29,317 nt of DNA from a virus. Its lineage: Duplodnaviria > Heunggongvirae > Uroviricota > Caudoviricetes. This document shows positions 1,206-11,703 of the stretch, piece after piece (position 1 is the first letter of the stretch; the number at the start of each line of letters is the position of its first letter). The notes under the pieces are model-generated. The model searched no databases and was not told the origin of the DNA. It saw nothing but the letters and a program-made list of their open reading frames with translations. Both the position numbers and the translations under genes were made by a program. The stretch is from positions 1 through 29,317 of IMG/VR virus record IMGVR_UViG_2872164251_000007; one strand, given 5' to 3'.

Positions 1206-2807
1206 TTATTTTACAGACGAGAAGTTCCAGGGCAGCAGTTCATGCACTTGGTTCGACGGCCAGTCATTGAGCTTCTCGATCACTTCGCGCAACCAGTCCT
1301 CCGGCTCCACTTCGTTCTGTTTGCAGGTGACCAGCAGACTGTAGATGATCGCCGCACTTTCTCCTCCCTTGTCTGAGCCGAAAAAGAGATAATTTTTTCT
1401 TCCAACCGCCACCGATCGTAACGCGTTTTCACCGATGTTGTTGTCTATTTCCACCCAGCCGTCACGACAGAACTCGTTCAGCGCATTCCAGTGATTCAGG
1501 ATATAGTCGAACGCCTTCGCCATCTCCGCATGTTTCGACAGCGTTTTCCTCTGCAACTGTATCCAGTCGTACAACGACTGCATCAACTGGACGCTTCTGG
1601 CTTTTCTGACTGCAAGCCGTTCCTCTGCCGGACTGCCACGTATCTCCGCTTCTATGTCGTATAACTCTGCTATCCGTCTGAGCGCTTCCTGAGTCATTTC
1701 TGTCGGACGGCGCACATCCTCGTCATGGATTTTTCGGCGGGCGTGGGCCAGGCACCCGGCTTCCTTCACCCGGCCCGTTTCGTACAGTACGTTATAACCT
1801 GCATAGGCATCAGCCTGCAGTACGCCCTGATACTTTGCCAGGTGGAGCTGCGGATGTTCTCCTTTGCGATCTGCCGAATACGCGAACCAGACGGCTGCCG
1901 GCAGGGATGAACCCGCATTACGATCATCCCTGACGTATACCCACAGACGACCCGTTTTCGTCTTTCCGTTCCCCGGGGCCAGTACTTTCACCGGAGTGTC
2001 ATCTGCGTGCACCTTTCCTGCCTCCAGAACATAGTCATTCAGCGCTATATACAGAGGACGGAGTTTGTCTGCCATTTCTGATACCCAGCGCACCATGGTA
2101 TTACGGCTCAGCTCCACGCCCTGTCGCGCGTATATTTCTGACTGGCGATATAAAGGGATATGTTCCATATATTTGCTGACCAGGATCCGTGCAAGTAACC
2201 CTGCACTGGCATAACCGCGTTCGATCGGTTTAGGGGGAAGTGGTGCCTGAACGATGACATCACACCGGCTACAGGCCAGTTTGGGACGTATGGTTTCGAT
2301 AACTTTAAAGGCGGTATTAATGATATCCAGTTGCTCTGAGATTGTTTCCCCCATTTCTTTCAGAACACCTCCACAGGCCGGGCAACTGGTTTCAGCAGGC
2401 AGAAGGCGATGTGTCTCCCGGGGAAGTTCTGCCGGCAGCGGTTTTCGTGAAGATTTTCGTCCCGGGAATTCAGGCTTACTGGCGATCGGGTTTTCTGACG
2501 GGGGACTGGTGTCAGGTGAATCTGTGACTGACGATGCATCTTCCAGAAGATTTCTGGCTGTGTTCAGCCGGTTTTCCAGTTCCGACAGTCGTTTTTCTGC
2601 CTGTCGGATCTGATTTTCAAGCTTATGACGCTTTTTCTCTGAACTCTGGCCGAACAACATACGACGCAACCTGTCGAGTTGCGCTTTCAGCCGTTCAATT
2701 TCCTGCTCATAGCCCGCGACCTGACAGGCATACTGTCGAAGCCGACTCTGTTGCTTACGCAACATGGCTTTAAGCAGCTCAATATCATCGGGGAGTTCAT
2801 TGTTCAT
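1206..2807 (-). CDS. tnpC: IS66-family transposase TnpC (orf3)
   Basis: 533-aa ORF with N-terminal coiled-coil/leucine-zipper region and zinc-finger CxxC motifs typical of IS66 TnpC. Confidence 0.85.
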
Positions 2808-2826
2808 TCCCTTGTTTTATCACGGG

Positions 2827-3174
2827 TTATATCCGGATGCCAGGCCGTTCTGTCCGTTTGGGATGTTGCCACGCGATCCCCTCCAGTAGCATGGATAACT
2901 GAGCTGGCGTCAGGTGCACTTTCCCTTCCCGGGTCACCGGCCAGACGAAGCGGCCCCGTTCCAGGCGTTTGGCGAACAGGCATAACCCGTCACGATCGGC
3001 CCACAGTATTTTCACCATTTTGCCACTGCGGCCCCGGAAGACGAAGATATGCCCGGAGAACGGGTCATCTTTCAGCGTGTTCTGCACCTTCGAAGCCAGG
3101 CCATTGAAGCCACAACGCATATCTGTGATGCCAGCGATGATCCAGATTTTGGTACCGGTCGGCAGCGTTATCAT
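2827..3174 (-). CDS. tnpB: IS66-family TnpB (orf2)
   Basis: 115-aa ORF immediately upstream of tnpC and overlapping tnpA stop by 4 nt; size and sequence typical of IS66 Orf2. Confidence 0.8.
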   Translation of the reverse strand: MITLPTGTKIWIIAGITDMRCGFNGLASKVQNTLKDDPFSGHIFVFRGRSGKMVKILWADRDGLCLFAKRLERGRFVWPVTREGKVHLTPAQLSMLLEGIAWQHPKRTERPGIRI

Positions 3175-3845
3175 CGGATACCCCCTTTCATTTCGCGGAT
3201 TAGCGCCCGTAACAGTTCCGGAGTGAGAGGGTCAAACAGTTTTACCACACCTGATTTAAGATGCAGCTCGCACCGTGGGACGTTTCCGGGAGCCCCCTCA
3301 GGGCGCTCATCATGCTTGTTACGCCAGAAGGGATTTGTAACTGGTCTGGTCGGCTCCGGCGTATCAGTCAGTGCCACCGGGACAGGCATGCATTCCTGTA
3401 TGTCATCATCGCTCAGTAAGCCGTCCTCGTACTGGCTTTTCCATTTAAACAGCAGGTTATTATTGATATCGTGTTCTCTGGCGATCCGGGCAACAACAGC
3501 CCCAGGCTGTAACGCCTGCTTAGCCAGACGGACCTTAAATTCACGGCTATAGCTGGTTCGCCGTTCTTTTCGCCATGAGCCTTCTCTGATTTGAGGCTCT
3601 GTTAATTCCTTCTTTCTGTTGGCATAAAGGATGGCGTCAAGTTGAGCGAATGAAACTGAATCGGGCAATGGCCATGCGATACCGGATGCAAGAAATCGCT
3701 GAAAAAGCGTATGTATTGTGGAATGACTGAGACCCAGACGCTGAGCGATGGCCCGGATGGTCAGTTTATCTTCAAATCTTAAACGCAGGGCATCAGGCAA
3801 ATAAGAACGGAAGCAGGGAATATCTTTTGTTGTCTGGGAATTCAT
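3171..3845 (-). CDS. tnpA: IS66-family TnpA (orf1), HTH accessory protein
   Basis: 224-aa ORF at the 5' side of the tnpB/tnpC pair, inside the IS66-type inverted repeats. Confidence 0.7.
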   Translation of the reverse strand: MNSQTTKDIPCFRSYLPDALRLRFEDKLTIRAIAQRLGLSHSTIHTLFQRFLASGIAWPLPDSVSFAQLDAILYANRKKELTEPQIREGSWRKERRTSYSREFKVRLAKQALQPGAVVARIAREHDINNNLLFKWKSQYEDGLLSDDDIQECMPVPVALTDTPEPTRPVTNPFWRNKHDERPEGAPGNVPRCELHLKSGVVKLFDPLTPELLRALIREMKGGIR

Positions 3846-3927: not shown

Positions 3928-4212
3928 CGTTACTCTAAAGAGTTCAAAGCCGAAGCTGTCAGAACGGTTCTTGAAAATCAACTTTCGATCAGTGAAGGCG
4001 CTTCCCGATTATCCCTTCCTGAAGGCACTTTAGGACAATGGGTTACCGCCGCCAGAAAAGGGCTCGGTACTCCTGGTTCCCGCACGGTGGCTGAACTGGA
4101 ATCTGAAATTCTGCAACTGCGTAAGGCGTTAAATGAAGCTCGCCTTGAGCGAGATATATTAAAAAAAGCAACAGCGTATTTTGCACAGGAGTCGCTGAAA
4201 AATACGCGTTAA
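3928..4212 (+). pseudogene. IS600 orfA, 5'-truncated (no start codon)
   Basis: Open frame encoding YSKEFKAEAV...KNTR identical in register to orfA of the complete copy, but beginning at the junction with the IS66-family element. Confidence 0.75.
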
Positions 4213-4247
4213 TCGAACAATGGCGACAACAATTTCCCATTGAAGCG

Positions 4248-5066
4248 ATGTGTCAGGTATTTGGTGTATCCAGGAGCGGTTATTACAACTGGGTACAGCA
4301 TGAACCCTCAGACAGAAAACAAAGTGATGAGCGGCTAAAACTGGAGATTAAGGTGGCACATATCCGCACTCGCGAAACATATGGAACCCGGCGGCTCCAG
4401 ACGGAGCTGGCAGAGAATGGCATCATCGTTGGTCGTGACCGACTGGCACGTCTTCGTAAGGAGCTGAGGCTACGCTGTAAGCAGAAACGCAAGTTCAGAG
4501 CGACTACGAACCCGAACCACAATCTGCCAGTTGCGCCAAATCTGCTGAACCAGACGTTCGCTCCTACAGCACCAAATCAGGTCTGGGTGGCGGACCTGAC
4601 GTATGTTGCCACACAGGAGGGATGGTTGTACCTCGCTGGCATCAAAGATGTTTATACGTGTGAAATTGTCGGCTACGCCATGGGAGAGCGCATGACAAAA
4701 GAGCTGACAGGTAAAGCCCTGTTTATGGCGCTCAGGAGCCAGCGCCCACCTGCCGGGCTAATCCACCACTCTGATCGAGGTTCACAGTACTGCGCATACG
4801 ATTACCGGGTCATACAGGAGCAGTTTGGTCTGAAAACATCAATGTCGCGTAAAGGTAACTGTTACGACAACGCTCCGATGGAAAGCTTCTGGGGAACGCT
4901 GAAAAATGAGAGCCTGAGCCACTATCGTTTTAATAACCGGGATGAAGCCATCTCAGTAATACGGGAATACATTGAGATTTTCTACAATCGTCAGCGTCGT
5001 CACTCTCGTCTGGGGAATATCTCCCCGGCAGCCTTCAGGGAAAAATATCATCAGATGGCTGCTTAA
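4248..5066 (+). CDS. IS600 orfB (DDE transposase catalytic domain)
   Basis: 272-aa ORF identical to orfB of the complete IS600 copy; IS3-family DDE region; normally expressed as an OrfAB fusion by frameshifting. Confidence 0.85.
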   Translation: MCQVFGVSRSGYYNWVQHEPSDRKQSDERLKLEIKVAHIRTRETYGTRRLQTELAENGIIVGRDRLARLRKELRLRCKQKRKFRATTNPNHNLPVAPNLLNQTFAPTAPNQVWVADLTYVATQEGWLYLAGIKDVYTCEIVGYAMGERMTKELTGKALFMALRSQRPPAGLIHHSDRGSQYCAYDYRVIQEQFGLKTSMSRKGNCYDNAPMESFWGTLKNESLSHYRFNNRDEAISVIREYIEIFYNRQRRHSRLGNISPAAFREKYHQMAA

Positions 5067-5109
5067 AAAAAGAACAAATGGTAGTGTCCGCTATTGCCAG
5101 TACACCTCA

Positions 5110-5297
5110 CCAGGCATGATGTCTTTTCCGGTGTGTCCGTGACATACAGTCCATACACCAATGATATCTTTGTATGGTATGTAGCTCACACCTTCCAGAC
5201 CATCGTTACCACCTGGGCCAGTGATTAACACAGATGCTATAGCAACAGCCCCGCCACCAATAGCAACTGCAACAGCCTTGCGTAATGATGGCGACAT
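5110..5297 (-). pseudogene. Phage endolysin (lysozyme with SAR-type N-terminal anchor), truncated after about 62 codons by IS600
   Basis: N-terminus [28 protein letters not shown]...[17 protein letters not shown] matches lambdoid (phage-21-type) SAR endolysins from memory; the reading frame runs into the IS600 right end at 5109. Confidence 0.75.
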
Positions 5298-5321
5298 TAT
5301 TCACCTCTCGCAGCCTTACGC

Positions 5322-5501
5322 TTATCTTCTCTTATTTTGCGTCAGATAAGTCAGAAGCCCCAGAAGCAGACTTCCCAGCACACCAATCGCAGCCCACTGT
5401 GATGGACTGACCTGATCCAACCACTGCAAAAACCAGTAGCCGGCACTGCCGGCGGCGGTGCCGTAGGCAATGCCCGTTGAAATTTTGTCCATGGATTTCA
5501 T
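5322..5501 (-). pseudogene. Phage holin (S21-type small holin), probably frameshifted near its 3' end
   Basis: [62 protein letters not shown]; a different frame across 5297-5340 encodes [13 protein letters not shown], which is the holin C-terminus I recall, ending in TAATG overlap with the endolysin start. RBS GGAGGTGAGG upstream. Confidence 0.6.
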
Positions 5502-5793
5502 AGCCTCACCTCCGCAAATAACGGATGGCGTAGTTTTACACTGAGAAATGAAAGGGATTTGAAAAGAAAAAAACGCAAAAGCGGGCGAAACGATATATAC
5601 AGTAAGGAAAGCACTCTATCCAACAAACCACCCACAGTTAATCGGAATAAAAGCAGAGTGCTTATGAATGATCGCACGCCCGAAGGTTAGTATTTCTGCA
5701 CAGCAATTTTGCAAAAAAAGGCGATCATTCATAACTTAAACGTCTTTCAGTCACTCCGGGATTTCCCATCATCGCAGACTGAAAGACTCTGAC

Positions 5794-5810
5794 TGGAGCG
5801 GGCAGCGGGA
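5794..5810. repeat. Candidate attR: 17-bp direct repeat of the tRNA-Gly 3' end
   Basis: TGGAGCGGGCAGCGGGA here versus TGGAGCGGGCGAAGGGA at 14705-14721 (10-bp perfect block, 14/17 overall); this copy restores correct acceptor/T-stem pairing if placed on the tRNA. Confidence 0.45.
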
Positions 5811-6058
5811 GCCTACGACAAATCGAAGACAACCAGCTAACCTATTGTTTCTTAAAGACAGGTGAATCCAGTTGGTTGTAGTGATAGTCACACATTTAGA
5901 GATAGAAGGTCAAGACTTGAAGCACGTAATATTCCCTCTAAAGGAATAGAACTCACGGTCTGACTACCCGGCCCTTTTGGTCTGGCTGAAGTGGCACACT
6001 GAATTTGGCCACCTGAACAGAGGTGATATGCTCACCTCAGAACAACACAGGTGCTCCA

Positions 6059-7227
<1,169 letters not shown>

Positions 7228-7309
7228 CCACTTCAGGCTCAGGTCAGGCTATGGGGGCTTTTGGCTCGCTCTTTATATTAGATGAGGTCTCACATTTTTC
7301 AGTCAAAAC

Positions 7310-7390
7310 TCATCGTCTAATAGCCCATAGCCAGACCACCAGTCCCAGCTTTAGCAGGAAGACCACGAGATAGACTTTGTGTAGGTCCAT
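7310..7390 (-). CDS. Small hydrophobic peptide (26 aa), candidate membrane peptide
   Basis: ATG preceded by AGGAGG at 5-nt spacing; product MDLHKVYLVVFLLKLGLVVWLWAIRR; last ORF of the minus-strand gene array. Below the ORF-track size cutoff. Confidence 0.25.
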   Translation of the reverse strand: MDLHKVYLVVFLLKLGLVVWLWAIRR

Positions 7391-7485
7391 TTGGCCCTCC
7401 TACTTTCTGTATTCACGAACTAGATTACTAGTACAAAATAAAGGCCAGACATCCAGTTCGGAAGTCTGACCAATAGTCGTTATTG

Positions 7486-8475
7486 TTAGTTAGCTTCTTT
7501 AGTGAAGCTCAGGCGTTTGACTACAGGCAGGACAGCAGTAGCCGAGCCAGTACCCATCTTGATGGTCGTAGCAGCTTCAGCTACAACAAACACCTTGCCG
7601 AGAATCTCAAGGTCGTGAGACTGGGAGTCTCCATCACGTGAAAGGACCACAGTAATGCTCTCGCCATCGTGACGGAAGCAACCGAAGCTCAGAGCCGTAA
7701 AACGCTTAGCCATCATGAACACGCCACGGTCTTCACCGTTGTAATAGGCGACGTCAGTCCCCAGCATATCGACGATAGCGTCTTCACCACCGAAGCCCTG
7801 CTTAGCAGCCAGACGGGAGAGAGCCTTGAGGTGTGACTCATGGGCGATAATGCCGTAGTCAGAAACCTCAGAACCGAAAGAAGACTCCGTGTTCTCGTAC
7901 AGGGCATCCATGATAGCGTCAGCCTTAGCGGTCAGGCTACCAGTCAGGGCCGGAAGTTCTACGGTCTTCAGCAGCTTTGAGGACTCCAGCACGTCAACCA
8001 TCTTAGAGTTAATGGTACGAATCACGTTATCGCAGATGTTCAGTGCGTCCTGCTGGAGCGTCCCCTGAGTGAAACCAGTGGTCGACTTCTGGTCCCAAAG
8101 CTTTGTTTGGTGAGACACGAGGATCGCCTGTTCAATCGGCTCAACGGTGATTTCAGCGCCAGACGGAGCGGTCACAACTTCAGGTCGCTTACCACCACGG
8201 ACAGGGACCAGCACAGAGCGGTCAGCCAGAGTGTGAGCAATGATTGGAGTCGGTAAGCTGTTACGGGTCGGCAGGACTTCTACAGGGAACGGGATGTTAT
8301 CTTGAGCGTCTTTAAGTACACCGTTCAGCATAGCCTTAACAGTCTTAGCTAACTGGAGGGCATAGACCTGAGGGTCGGCGTTAGTCGGAAGGCCCTCATT
8401 AACCTGAAGGTTGTCGTTGTCGGTGATATGAACAGGCTCAATGCCAAACTGGAAAGCGTTTTTAGTCATATTCAT
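7486..8475 (-). CDS. Hypothetical protein, 329 aa (island cargo; function unknown)
   Basis: Long ORF with AAGGAGA RBS about 10 nt upstream; co-oriented and tightly packed with the upstream 163-aa ORF; I cannot assign a family by eye. Confidence 0.6.
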   Translation of the reverse strand: MNMTKNAFQFGIEPVHITDNDNLQVNEGLPTNADPQVYALQLAKTVKAMLNGVLKDAQDNIPFPVEVLPTRNSLPTPIIAHTLADRSVLVPVRGGKRPEVVTAPSGAEITVEPIEQAILVSHQTKLWDQKSTTGFTQGTLQQDALNICDNVIRTINSKMVDVLESSKLLKTVELPALTGSLTAKADAIMDALYENTESSFGSEVSDYGIIAHESHLKALSRLAAKQGFGGEDAIVDMLGTDVAYYNGEDRGVFMMAKRFTALSFGCFRHDGESITVVLSRDGDSQSHDLEILGKVFVVAEAATTIKMGTGSATAVLPVVKRLSFTKEAN

Positions 8476-8558
8476 TATAATTAATCTCCTTGAGTCAAAT
8501 ACTTGAAGTCCCTAACAGGCAGTCAGGGACCGTGTGTTCTCAGATGAGGGACGCTTGC

Positions 8559-9050
8559 TTACAAGCTGTCCATCCAGTTACCGCCTGACTCAAGGTCAGC
8601 GACGATAGCGGCACGTGAGCGACCAGCGGAATGAGTAGCGCTGCGGAGGTTTTCACCATAGGTCCGGCGTTCAGCTTTGACCTGTTCGCGGCGCTGTAGC
8701 TCTTTTTGCCATTCGTCTTCGGTCATGAACATTTCGCGGGTACGCTCTTTCTGAGACGCTAGCTCTTTAGCGATACGCTCAGCTTCAGCTCGTTTGTTCA
8801 TCTGGCGGCGTTGGTAGGCGGTCATCAGGTCATTACTGAAGAAGTTACCAATGGTCACGCCAGCTTCAGCCAGAGCTTCCAGTAACTCCATCGCCTCGCG
8901 GCTGGTGGACGGTAAGCCTGACAGGTAGCCCGGAATGAGGGTCTTGATAGCGAGCGACAACGGATAGGACTGACCGTCCAGACTCACAGTGTTTTCATAA
9001 AGGTTGATGTCGGTGACTGACAGCTTCCAGTTGTTGTTGTTGAACATCAT
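8559..9050 (-). CDS. Hypothetical protein, 163 aa, with charged coiled-coil-like C-terminal half
   Basis: ORF with AGGAGA RBS 7 nt upstream of ATG; C-terminal half rich in E/R/K/Q. Confidence 0.6.
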   Translation of the reverse strand: MMFNNNNWKLSVTDINLYENTVSLDGQSYPLSLAIKTLIPGYLSGLPSTSREAMELLEALAEAGVTIGNFFSNDLMTAYQRRQMNKRAEAERIAKELASQKERTREMFMTEDEWQKELQRREQVKAERRTYGENLRSATHSAGRSRAAIVADLESGGNWMDSL

Positions 9051-9169
9051 AGGTAATTCTCCTCTTGAGAGTTGAGACTATCGGTATCGCAGGCACAGTA
9101 AGGCCTACGGGTCTCCCCGCATCGGTCATCTCAAAAGGTGTTTAAATTAGGTATTGAGTAGGTGAGCTA

Positions 9170-9346
9170 CTAACGGTTAAGCGGCAGTTTCATAGCGACC
9201 AGTTGGGCTATTAGCTCGTCTCGGGATTGGTGCTGGCGGGTCTCATCTTCCGGGTCTAGACCAAGCTCTCTGAGGAGGACTTCAGTCCGGTAGCCACGGT
9301 AACGGAGAGTCATGCGCCCCTCAGGTGTGCGCGGGTCAATCATCAT
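9170..9346 (-). CDS. Small ORF, 58 aa
   Basis: Starts ATGATG one nucleotide after the Rha-family stop, GGAGGG about 7 nt upstream; product MMIDPRTPEGRMTLRYRGYRTEVLLRELGLDPEDETRQHQSRDELIAQLVAMKLPLNR. Below the ORF-track cutoff. Confidence 0.3.
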   Translation of the reverse strand: MMIDPRTPEGRMTLRYRGYRTEVLLRELGLDPEDETRQHQSRDELIAQLVAMKLPLNR

Positions 9347-10103
9347 CTTAGATTCCCTCCACCTTACCGGATTGTGCCAGCTTCAGGAGGTGCTCTTGCT
9401 TCTGCTGGTCGGTGCCAGTGAATGCAATAAGGATGCCTCGCATCTTGTCAACCATCTCAGGCTTACCGAAGACCTCCAGCCCCTTAGCGTTGAACCGGAA
9501 GTTATACCCACCTGCTGAGAACTTCTGGTCTGACGGCTTAATGATACGAAAGCAGTCGGAATACTTCGGATTTACAGACCACTCGTTACTGATTGGGTTC
9601 TTACGAAAGAGGCCACGATGCTGGAGAAGTGCGGTCATTAGCTTCTGAGCGGGCAGACCATAGGTTTTGCAGTAGTCGCCCCAAGTCACGCCTCGGCGGT
9701 TAGCGGACTGAATGGCTGCTCGCTTCTTCTGGTCTTCCAGTTGAAGGACTCGACGCTCTAACGTCTGAATATGGTCGTAACACTTGGCGCGGAGGTGAAC
9801 GGAATAGCCAGCGACCAGAATGAAAGTATGCTTACGGTCGAGACGATACAGCGGCTGCTGTTTCCCCTGCGCGTTTAGATAGACATCTTCAGTCACCCCG
9901 ATATGACTGCTCAGTTTTGAGCACTGCTCAGTTTTGAGCGCGTTAAGCTCCTCAGCCATATTGCGAATATCACGCAGGACATTTCGGTGCTCCTTGCCTG
10001 TCAGCTCAGCAATTTCAACTGAGGTCATGGAGACAAGCTGGTCGAGGTTTGAACCGCCCCGGGAATCCTGGAGACTAAACTTCCTGAGAAAGAGGTAAAC
10101 AGG

Positions 10104-10430
10104 ATGACTAAAAATACTCGTTTTTCCCCCGAAGTCCGTCAACGGGCAGTCCGTATGGTTCTGGAAAGTCAGGGCGAATATGACTCACAATGGGCGACAA
10201 TTTGTTCCATTGCTCCAAAGATTGGCTGTACGCCGGAGACTCTGCGTGTCTGGGTTCGCCAGCATGAGCGGGATACCGGGGGCGGTGATGGAGGGCTCAC
10301 CACCGCTGAACGTCAGCGTCTGAAAGAGCTGGAGCGTGAAAATCGTGAACTGCGCCGCAGTAACGATATCCTTCGCCAGGCTTCCGCTTATTTTGCGAAG
10401 GCGGAGTTCGACCGCCTCTGGAAAAAATGA
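10104..10430 (+). CDS. IS629 orfA
   Basis: 108-aa [24 protein letters not shown]... with HTH and leucine-zipper features. Confidence 0.85.
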
Positions 10431-11317
10431 TGCCACTGCTGGATAAGCTGCGTGAGCAGTACGGGGTCGGACCGCTATGCAGCGAACTGCATATTGCCCC
10501 GTCAACGTATTACCACTGTCAGCAACAGCGACATCATCCGGATAAACGCAGTGCCCGTGCGCAGCGCGATGACTGGCTGAAGAAAGAGATACAGCGCGTA
10601 TACGATGAAAATCACAAGGTATACGGTGTGCGTAAAGTCTGGCGTCAGTTGTTACGGGAAGGTATCAGAGTGGCCAGATGCACTGTGGCACGTCTCATGG
10701 CGGTTATGGGACTTGCCGGTGTTCTCCGGGGTAAAAAGGTCCGTACGACCATCAGCCGGAAAGCCGTTGCCGCAGGCGACCGCGTAAACCGTCAGTTCGT
10801 GGCAGAACGACCTGACCAGCTGTGGGTGGCTGATTTTACTTACGTCAGCACATGGCAGGGCTTCGTCTATGTGGCGTTCATCATTGATGTGTTTGCCGGA
10901 TGCATCGTGGGGTGGCGGGTCTCATCGTCCATGGAAACGACATTCGTGCTGGATGCACTGGAGCAGGCGTTATGGGCCCGTCGACCGTCCGGCACGGTCC
11001 ATCACAGTGATAAAGGTTCTCAGTATGTATCGCTGGCCTACACACAGCGGCTTAAGGAAGCCGGATTACTGGCATCAACAGGAAGTACAGGCGACTCGTA
11101 TGACAACGCGATGGCGGAGAGCATCAATGGTCTTTACAAAGCGGAGGTAATACACCGTAAGAGCTGGAAAAACCGTGCAGAAGTGGAACTGGCCACACTA
11201 ACGTGGGTGGACTGGTATAACAATCGACGATTGCTGGAAAGGCTGGGCCACATCCCTCCGGCAGAAGCAGAAAAAGCTTATTATGCTTCCATCGGAAACG
11301 ATGATCTGGCAGCCTGA
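10427..11317 (+). CDS. IS629 orfB (DDE transposase domain)
   Basis: 296-aa ORF overlapping orfA end; IS3-family DDE region. Confidence 0.85.
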
Positions 11318-11703
11318 GTTCACAGATAAAACACTCTCCAGGAAACCCGGAGCGGTTCAGTTAATGACGCTGATTTCTTGTTGGGACATTTACGTGTACT
11401 CCTTTTGTTTGCACCCTGAAGTCGCACCCCACTGACCTACTCAAGCCCCCACGTAAAGGGAGACCAGCAGGCAACAGGACGCAAACAGAATGACTTGAGG
11501 TAATTGGGGTTAGTGGTCTGCGATGACCATAGAGATGAAGGTTCGACAGCATGTCCGAGCGTGTGTGGTGATAGACTTAAGTCACGAGACCAAAGAACAC
11601 ACAGGCTGACCAGAGGCTGTCTTGCCTTAGGCTGGTGGCTAGCTTGCTAGCGTGGACCACGGTTTCTCGCTTGCCGTCTCTCAGGAGGTCAGAGGCGAGA
11701 TAT

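Follow-up and report, generated by a model that had tools for sequence, protein, structure and literature searches.

An IS629 copy interrupts a Rha-type gene on a small tRNA-Gly integrative element nested in a lambdoid prophage

Background

Genes for phage-type regulators that carry a copy of IS629 have been described before. In the Stx2a phage Stx2_499 (LC567824.1, L022 958-3105) this insertion sequence (IS) lies in a gene for a 'putative phage regulatory protein' beside the O replication gene, and such genes are routinely annotated as 'interrupted by IS629'. Here I analyse a similar case in the IMG/VR virus record IMGVR_UViG_2872164251_000007 (positions 1 to 29,317; 'the window' denotes this whole stretch of 29,317 nucleotides), where IS629 sits in codon 10 of a Rha-type gene on a small integrative element at a tRNA-Gly gene of a lambdoid prophage. 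The IS is the same in both cases (99.3% identity over 1310 bp), and in both it is accompanied by a short target duplication. However, the duplication in Stx2_499 is the 4-bp CCAG, in another gene and another host element, whereas the window shows the 3-bp GTT. Unlike the Stx2_499 case, the window insertion lies only 27 bp into the open reading frame (ORF), the stub encoding a 10-residue peptide.

With the described Rha/Ant-type regulators (PF09669, PHROG 10324), the product of the interrupted gene shares the N-terminal Rha domain and a match over the full length of the PHROG. It differs from them in that its KilAC part and the subfamily model TIGR02681 remain below their cut-offs, and in that the gene is carried by a 6.4-kb integrative element and not by a complete phage. 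No member this close to the window protein and with a tested function was found in the literature. The chromosome of strain SFL1520, a Shigella flexneri of serotype 3b (CP032513.1), matches the window at 100% identity over 20,028 bp, and the corresponding genome paper (PMC6424224) makes no mention of IS629 or of the Rha-type locus.

The interrupted gene

The stretch 10050-11359 (plus strand) is a complete IS629 of the IS3 family, 1310 bp long, with its transposase reading in the direction opposite to that of the interrupted gene. Its 25-nt terminal inverted repeats are 88% complementary (left, IRL, 10050-10074; right, IRR, 11335-11359), and its two ORFs, both intact, overlap and are joined by a -1 frameshift signal:

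10104-10430, plus strand: IS629 orfA, 108 amino acids (aa), HTH_Tnp_1 Pfam match
10427-11317, plus strand: IS629 orfB, 296 aa, rve / IS3 transposase match

The IS3 transposase model NF033516 of NCBIfam scores 315 bits against a cut-off of 160, and the ALIL frameshift pseudoknot of Rfam is found at 10385-10501 with 120 bits (gathering score 50). Stx phage records contain features annotated as 'insertion sequence: IS3 family IS629' to which the IS is 99.3% identical over 1310/1310 bp, and thousands of E. coli replicons have copies with which it shares 99.4-99.5% identity. The target-site duplication GTT is perfect (copy 1 at 11360-11362, copy 2 at 10047-10049). Length, inverted repeats, the two frameshift-joined ORFs, near-identity to the reference and a duplication of 3-4 bp all identify the IS as IS629.

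The original prediction for this DNA held that a Rha-family gene is interrupted by IS629 at codon 10 with a perfect GTT duplication, that 27 bp encoding MSQQEISVI remain upstream of the IS together with an AAGGAG ribosome-binding site, and that the frame resumes beyond it. The sequence bears this out to the position, with the gene parts arranged as follows:

11399-11404, minus strand: AAGGAG, the Shine-Dalgarno sequence of the Rha-type gene, 9 nt before the ATG, read from the sequence
11363-11389, minus strand: codons 1-9 of the Rha-type gene (MSQQEISVI), left as a 5' stub with the ATG at 11389-11387
9348-10049, minus strand: 3' part of the Rha-type gene, codons 10-242 and stop, with the whole Pfam Rha domain and the KilAC-like C-terminal half

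On the gene strand, copy 1 of the GTT supplies codon 10 (AAC) and is followed at once by a TGA from the end of IS629 (11359-11357). In silico removal of IS629 and one GTT restores a 729-bp ORF of 242 aa that ends at 9348. The 909-bp reconstructed site is 100.0% identical (909/909 bp, in one ungapped piece) to intact, IS629-free loci in several complete E. coli genomes, in which the gene is annotated as 'Rha family transcriptional regulator', so that chance is ruled out for the insertion, for its limits and for the ancestral allele. The empty site with a single GTT is thus known in E. coli at 100% identity; the k-mer CAGCGTCATTAACCTCGACCAGCTTG marks it, and GACAAGCTGGTCGAGGTTTGAACCGCCCCGGG marks the IS629 junction.

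IS copies are a classic source of misassembly, and the genome was obtained by MinION/MiSeq hybrid assembly (PMC6424224), so one might suspect that IS629 has been misplaced and that the gene is really intact. I give such an artefact next to no credence, as the junction shows the perfect 3-bp duplication typical of IS629 and recurs identically in independent assemblies. The IRL junction is spanned by short-read contigs of other assemblies (L005, L012, L013), and the same junction is present in AFGW01000067.1. Altogether the IS629 junction occurs in at least five assemblies (the window and four others, L005, L010/L023, L012 and L013), of which at least two are from S. flexneri. This prevalence was counted from junction-spanning contigs and not from an exact look-up of the 264-aa ORF that runs across the junction (see below), which returned one further contig only.

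The reconstructed protein belongs to the Rha family, as had been predicted. It matches Pfam Phage_pRha (PF09669) with 66.4 bits against a cut-off of 29.9, from residue 17 to 107 and over profile positions 1-90 of 91, and, over its entire length, PHROG 10324, 'anti-repressor Ant' (E 1.6e-69). The more specific NCBIfam model TIGR02681 reaches 40.8, below its cut-off of 45.95. The cluster representative in the protein database (P0033, 242 aa) was reported at 100% identity and 100% coverage, though the alignment shows one M-to-V difference near the C-terminus. The C-terminal half matches ANT/KilAC (PF03374) only weakly, at 16.8 bits and under the Pfam cut-off of 25.3; 12 of 13 homologues give a weak match at this place as well, with a best E of 0.0022. 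The architecture is that of a Rha N-terminal domain (Rha-N) followed by a divergent KilAC-like domain, as is typical of phage antirepressor-type regulators, a resemblance from which the activity is putative. Homologues of 233-252 aa with 84-90% identity, annotated as 'Rha family transcriptional regulator', are common in Enterobacteriaceae. Residues I9, N10, L11, D12, Q13, S16 and M17 are invariant across the alignment of homologues, which places the true N-terminus upstream of Met17.

Within the gene there is a perfect 17-bp tandem duplication at 9906-9939, with ACTGCTCAGTTTTGAGC present twice. I considered it as a second lesion and dropped the idea, as the duplication is native: it is also found in the intact E. 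coli allele, and it falls in a hypervariable, repeat-expanding linker of the family (ELNALKTE...) whose length varies among homologues of 233, 242 and 252 aa.

That the insertion disrupts the gene, as had been proposed, is evident from its 5' end: translation from the native ATG now gives MSQQEISVIN, a 10-residue peptide, and then meets the TGA from the IS terminus. The frame of the 233 remaining codons is open for 135 nt into IS629 (from 10184) and contains two candidate starts only, the ATG at 10028-10026 (Met17) and a TTG at 10142 inside IS629, the latter opening a 264-aa fusion ORF of 31 IS-derived residues followed by N10 onward. Expression of the remainder does need an internal start or one inside IS629, where an internal start or transcription from within IS629 had been suggested; the internal methionine is, however, Met17 and not Met18, a number obtained only when both GTT copies are kept. 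No Shine-Dalgarno sequence precedes either start, and a product begun at Met17 would miss the invariant I9, N10, L11, D12, Q13 and S16. Since the genes of IS629 read the opposite way, its own promoter cannot drive the remnant, and a consensus scan of the minus strand between 9000 and 12400 found no sigma-70-like promoter. Just inside IRR, at 11352-11336 on the minus strand, there is a terminator-like hairpin with a U-run (-16.7 kcal/mol, z -2.3), which as a terminator is only suggestive. Under Rho-dependent polarity, an untranslated stretch of 1.3 kb is expected to lower the transcription of what follows.

What follows is more than the gene itself. The Rha-type gene is the first of a co-directional cluster of four, the others encoding proteins of 58, 163 and 329 aa, and no promoter-like or terminator-like sites were found between these genes on the same strand. 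The earlier description of the gene as the regulator of the operon therefore stands with respect to its position, while its regulatory role remains a matter of inference.

The course of events is best pictured as follows. An active-looking IS629 copy has transposed into codon 10 of a Rha-N/KilAC-like regulator gene of antirepressor type, with duplication of the target GTT, and has so parted the promoter, the ribosome-binding site and codons 1-9 from the other 233 codons. With the IS end providing an immediate TGA, a transcript from the native promoter would be left untranslated after 10 codons and would then face 1.3 kb of antisense IS629, starting with the hairpin and U-run in IRR. The outcome would likely be a null allele of the Rha-type gene, and probably also a polar loss of the downstream genes. 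Taken as a whole, insertional inactivation by IS629, with a likely null allele and probable polar loss downstream, is in my judgement very probably the right explanation, the loss of expression, the polarity and the regulatory role being its inferred parts.

Several points weigh against this explanation. The consensus scans for promoters and terminators are crude, and terminator-like sites are no more numerous than in shuffled sequence. With the frame open for 135 nt into IS629, a low level of nearly complete protein, from N10 onward, is conceivable via the 264-aa TTG ORF. Both the loss of expression and the regulation of the downstream genes by the Rha-type protein are putative.

A stronger form of this objection is that the function is kept by an N-terminally altered protein, made from Met17 or from TTG 10142 through native read-through or from a cryptic antisense promoter in IS629. 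The Pfam Rha domain (17-107) does survive in full in the remnant, as does the C-terminal half, the frame is open from 10184 into the gene as part of the 264-aa fusion ORF, and one gene caller annotated that ORF in another assembly. Nevertheless, I regard retained function as very unlikely, for want of a Shine-Dalgarno sequence at both starts and of a promoter-like site on the minus strand, with the invariant residues of I9-S16 missing from a Met17 product, and given the hairpin with U-run at the entry to IS629 and the polarity that 1.3 kb of untranslated RNA should trigger.

Insertional inactivation being preferred, one may ask whether it was selected. Silencing an antirepressor-type or capsid-operon switch of a parasitic element could help the host, or alternatively the 5' end of the gene could be a hot spot for ISs. 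In this direction points an independent IS100 in E. coli CP019005.1 (L002 8023-9998), with the duplication TCCAT, which lies in codon 16/17 of the orthologous gene and some 20 bp from the IS629 site. The presence of the IS629 allele in at least five assemblies and the interruption of another phage regulatory gene by IS629 in the Stx2a phage point the same way. However, only 3 of 182 complete E. coli genomes with the Rha-type gene have it in two places, which indicates that interruption is rare where the IS load is low. Neutral insertions are expected in Shigella, with hundreds of IS copies per genome, and several further ISs (IS911-like, IS600-like copies and IS66-family) are found in the same element and the surrounding prophage. 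Moreover, two insertion events are too few for statistics. A selected knockout or a hot spot is thus unlikely, and it is simpler to assume neutral decay in a genome rich in ISs. The IS100 insertion in CP019005.1 leaves the ATG of Met17 right at the IS end.

The IS629 event is thus a routine insertional inactivation, ordinary for Shigella. It matters little as such, as one more IS pseudogene in a genome full of ISs, and may serve at most as a lineage marker.

The surrounding element

Of more value is the context of the insertion. The integrase-Rha module is commonly regarded as that end of the ETT2 island which lies at glyU. In E. coli an intact Rha-type gene has the integrase next to glyU on one side and the ETT2 genes for type III secretion on the other. 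In the window the module belongs to an element of about 5811-14704, 8.9 kb in length with two ISs and 6.37 kb without IS629 and the second, IS911-like IS; the IS-free length matches that of an intact 6.4-kb element in E. coli. Its limits and the second IS are as follows:

5794-5810: distal att repeat TGGAGCGGGCAGCGGGA, 17-bp core, phage-tRNA version, from alignment with the uninterrupted phage vB_EcoS-689R5
14705-14721: att repeat TGGAGCGGGCGAAGGGA on the integrase side, in the glyU/element version; it makes up the 3' end of a hybrid tRNA-Gly(UCC)
5988-7229, plus strand: second IS, IS3 family with IS911-like ends, 1242 bp, from the junctions against the empty site in L001 and from IS3 transposase matches

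The window integrase abuts the tRNA-Gly(UCC) gene of a Met-Arg-Thr-Gly tRNA array. The order of Q, tRNA array and holin S is uninterrupted in Escherichia phage vB_EcoS-689R5. The tRNA array of this phage is matched by window 14705-15032 and its holin side by window 5296-5810, and on the phage the two alignments share 17 bp. At E. coli glyU, the TGGAGCGGGCGAAGGGA version is found on both sides of the element (L001 9987-10003 and 18320-18336). In the tRNA-Gly(UCC) of the window, at 14705-14779, the 5' part comes from the phage and the 3' end from the element; this hybrid has the stem mismatches A7.C66 and C50.U64, unlike the fully paired tRNA-Gly of vB_EcoS-689R5. Its Rfam score is 48.9 bits, against 56-70 for the neighbouring tRNAs, and the hybrid may be crippled. 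The unlike 17-bp copies and the hybrid tRNA together form what is, judged from the alignments, the signature of an integrase-mediated insertion into a secondary site.

The precise insertion in a phage-borne tRNA-Gly gene implies that the integrase-Rha module is an independent mobile element and not a part of ETT2. In E. coli the module of integrase, Rha-type and capsid-like genes is situated between glyU and the secretion genes of ETT2. It is nevertheless bounded on either side by 17-bp att repeats of its own and shares with ETT2 the glyU site; in the window and in Rouxiella, where the element also lies at tRNA-Gly, it occurs without secretion genes. Comparison of these insertion sites thus argues that the element is separate from ETT2 and was mobile. 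What had been called an island is accordingly a distinct unit, but a small, self-contained tRNA-Gly integrative element and not ETT2.

A 6413-bp contig (L020) was considered as an excised circle with an attP junction. This was rejected, as a Rouxiella genome shows about 100 bp of the left end of the element duplicated after attR, so that L020 gives no evidence for a circle. The IS911-like IS is flanked by a duplication of GGC (5985-5987 and 7230-7232) and lies in the non-coding tail, between the gene for the 329-aa protein and the distal att repeat.

All genes of the element are co-directional with the late operon of the prophage (minus strand, like Q and S). Together with the control region upstream of the Rha-type gene they are:

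12960-14570, minus strand: tyrosine integrase, 536 aa, Pfam Phage_integrase, PHROG 1
12320-12928, minus strand: 202-aa protein in a variable cargo slot beside the integrase, function not assigned by family match
11390-12319, minus strand: region of about 0.93 kb upstream of the Rha-type gene, no ORF of at least 90 aa, presumed promoter/control region with a repeated CCCTATAGTGATAGTT motif
9170-9346, minus strand: 58-aa ORF, start 1 nt after the stop of the Rha-type gene, 81% identical counterpart in the Rouxiella element
8559-9050, minus strand: 163-aa protein, partner of the HK97-fold gene, with a charged and probably helical central stretch (about residues 76-133)
7486-8475, minus strand: 329-aa protein with predicted HK97 (capsid/encapsulin) fold, last gene of the cluster

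Searches with Pfam, PHROG and NCBIfam found no replication (primase), AlpA, terminase (terS-like) or portal genes in the element. The proteins of 58, 163, 202 and 329 aa gave nothing against Pfam, PHROGs, PADLOC and NCBIfam. In the cargo slot, the E. coli and Rouxiella elements have a DUF4145 protein instead (PHROG 1305, 'DNA binding protein').

The 0.93-kb region is 98% conserved with E. coli, and for the stretch directly 5' of the regulator slot conservation with Rouxiella is 84.5%; an Rfam scan of the region gave no RNA family match. Three copies of a CCCTATAGTGA(TAGTT) motif are found in it (11705-11725, 12266-12286 and 12294-12306), which may be putative binding sites of a regulator or arm-type sites of the integrase. 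The 5' leader of the Rha-type gene also holds an imperfect 29-nt inverted repeat, 72% complementary (11390-11418 and 11475-11503), one arm of which contains the Shine-Dalgarno sequence; its pairing might occlude the ribosome-binding site. Downstream, the 58-aa ORF is likely to be translationally coupled to the Rha-type gene.

The last gene of the cluster deserves attention. A first AlphaFold2 model of the 329-aa protein, from a shallow alignment of 12 sequences, was unusable (pLDDT 42) and was replaced by one from an alignment of 34 sequences built from an exhaustive HMMER profile search, which reached a pLDDT of 83.4 and a pTM of 0.79. On this model, the protein is predicted to have an HK97 fold, similar to that of capsid or encapsulin proteins. 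The exhaustive search with the family gave 63 relatives; close relatives of the protein occur in a few enterobacteria only. With the exception of one relative that has an Ig domain, neither the protein nor 34 relatives gave a match in Pfam, PHROG, NCBIfam or PDB sequences, which puts the 329-aa protein outside the known capsid and encapsulin sequence families tested. The 163-aa protein is possibly a scaffold.

Related elements in Rouxiella and, more distantly, in L018 share the integrase (76% and 35% identity, respectively), the partner of about 160 aa in the same position (49% and 27%) and the HK97-fold protein (76% and 36%). In their Rha slot there are unrelated proteins, which have matches in a PHROG for a phage 'transcriptional regulator', and this exchange of unrelated phage regulators in one slot supports the view that the slot would hold the regulator of the element. 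For the RefSeq accessions of three element proteins, no mention was found in the literature searched.

Among described mobile elements, the helper-embedded phage-inducible chromosomal islands (HE-PICIs; Mageeney et al. 2023, PMC10111431) are comparable in that a small integrase element is nested in the late region of a lambdoid prophage, in the direction of the late operon; the combination of a capsid-fold gene with a Bro/Rha-type regulator zone is likewise found in HE-PICIs and PICIs of Gram-negative bacteria. Unlike HE-PICIs, however, the window element lies in a phage-borne tRNA-Gly gene and not in a late protein-coding gene, and its host prophage is decayed. Only an integrase was found, and no AlpA, primase/replication or packaging genes as in HE-PICIs and other PICIs; without ISs the element measures 6.37 kb against 10-20 kb for PICIs, and in E. 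coli it normally occupies glyU on the chromosome. As it fails several features that define PICIs, I do not class it as one. A further comparison, by description only, is with the tailless 'encapsulin-enriched mini viral entities' of gut viromes (bioRxiv 10.1101/2025.06.18.659913), which average 8.9 kb and have replication genes, unlike the window element, in which none is recognisable.

One may go further and take the Rha/KilAC-type gene as the switch of an undescribed family of minimal tRNA-Gly elements (about 5.5-6.5 kb), either mini-satellites or mobile encapsulin-like particles, that nest in lambdoid late operons and whose IS629 and IS100 hits are host-selected silencing. In that case, the only conserved genes could be those for the integrase, the scaffold-like protein of about 160 aa and the HK97-fold shell protein. 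I hold this to be unlikely. Of value in itself is that a mobile element independent of ETT2 carries an unannotated protein with a predicted HK97 fold and a conserved small partner. If particles were formed, few capsid-gene-bearing mobile elements of enterobacteria would be smaller, and E. coli with the intact allele, such as CFSAN064035, would offer a natural test system.

The element lies inside a lambdoid prophage, in a phage-borne tRNA-Gly gene between Q and the lysis genes, with the Q/tRNA array on one side and a holin remnant on the other. Stx phages carry stx at the same position of the late operon as the nested element. The prophage remnant carries a Q-like gene, and C4 antisense RNA, isrK and sok were found close to that gene and deeper in the prophage, at 18178-18365 and 21325-21499 (Rfam gathering-level). 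The ISs of the prophage and a lysozyme fragment of 68 aa show that it is heavily decayed. These ISs comprise one of the IS66 family and one more IS in three copies, full or partial (1206-3845, 3928-5109, 15733-16346 and 27700-28881); the copies of the latter match each other at 99.7% identity, and the sizes of their ORFs suggest that it is IS600-like.

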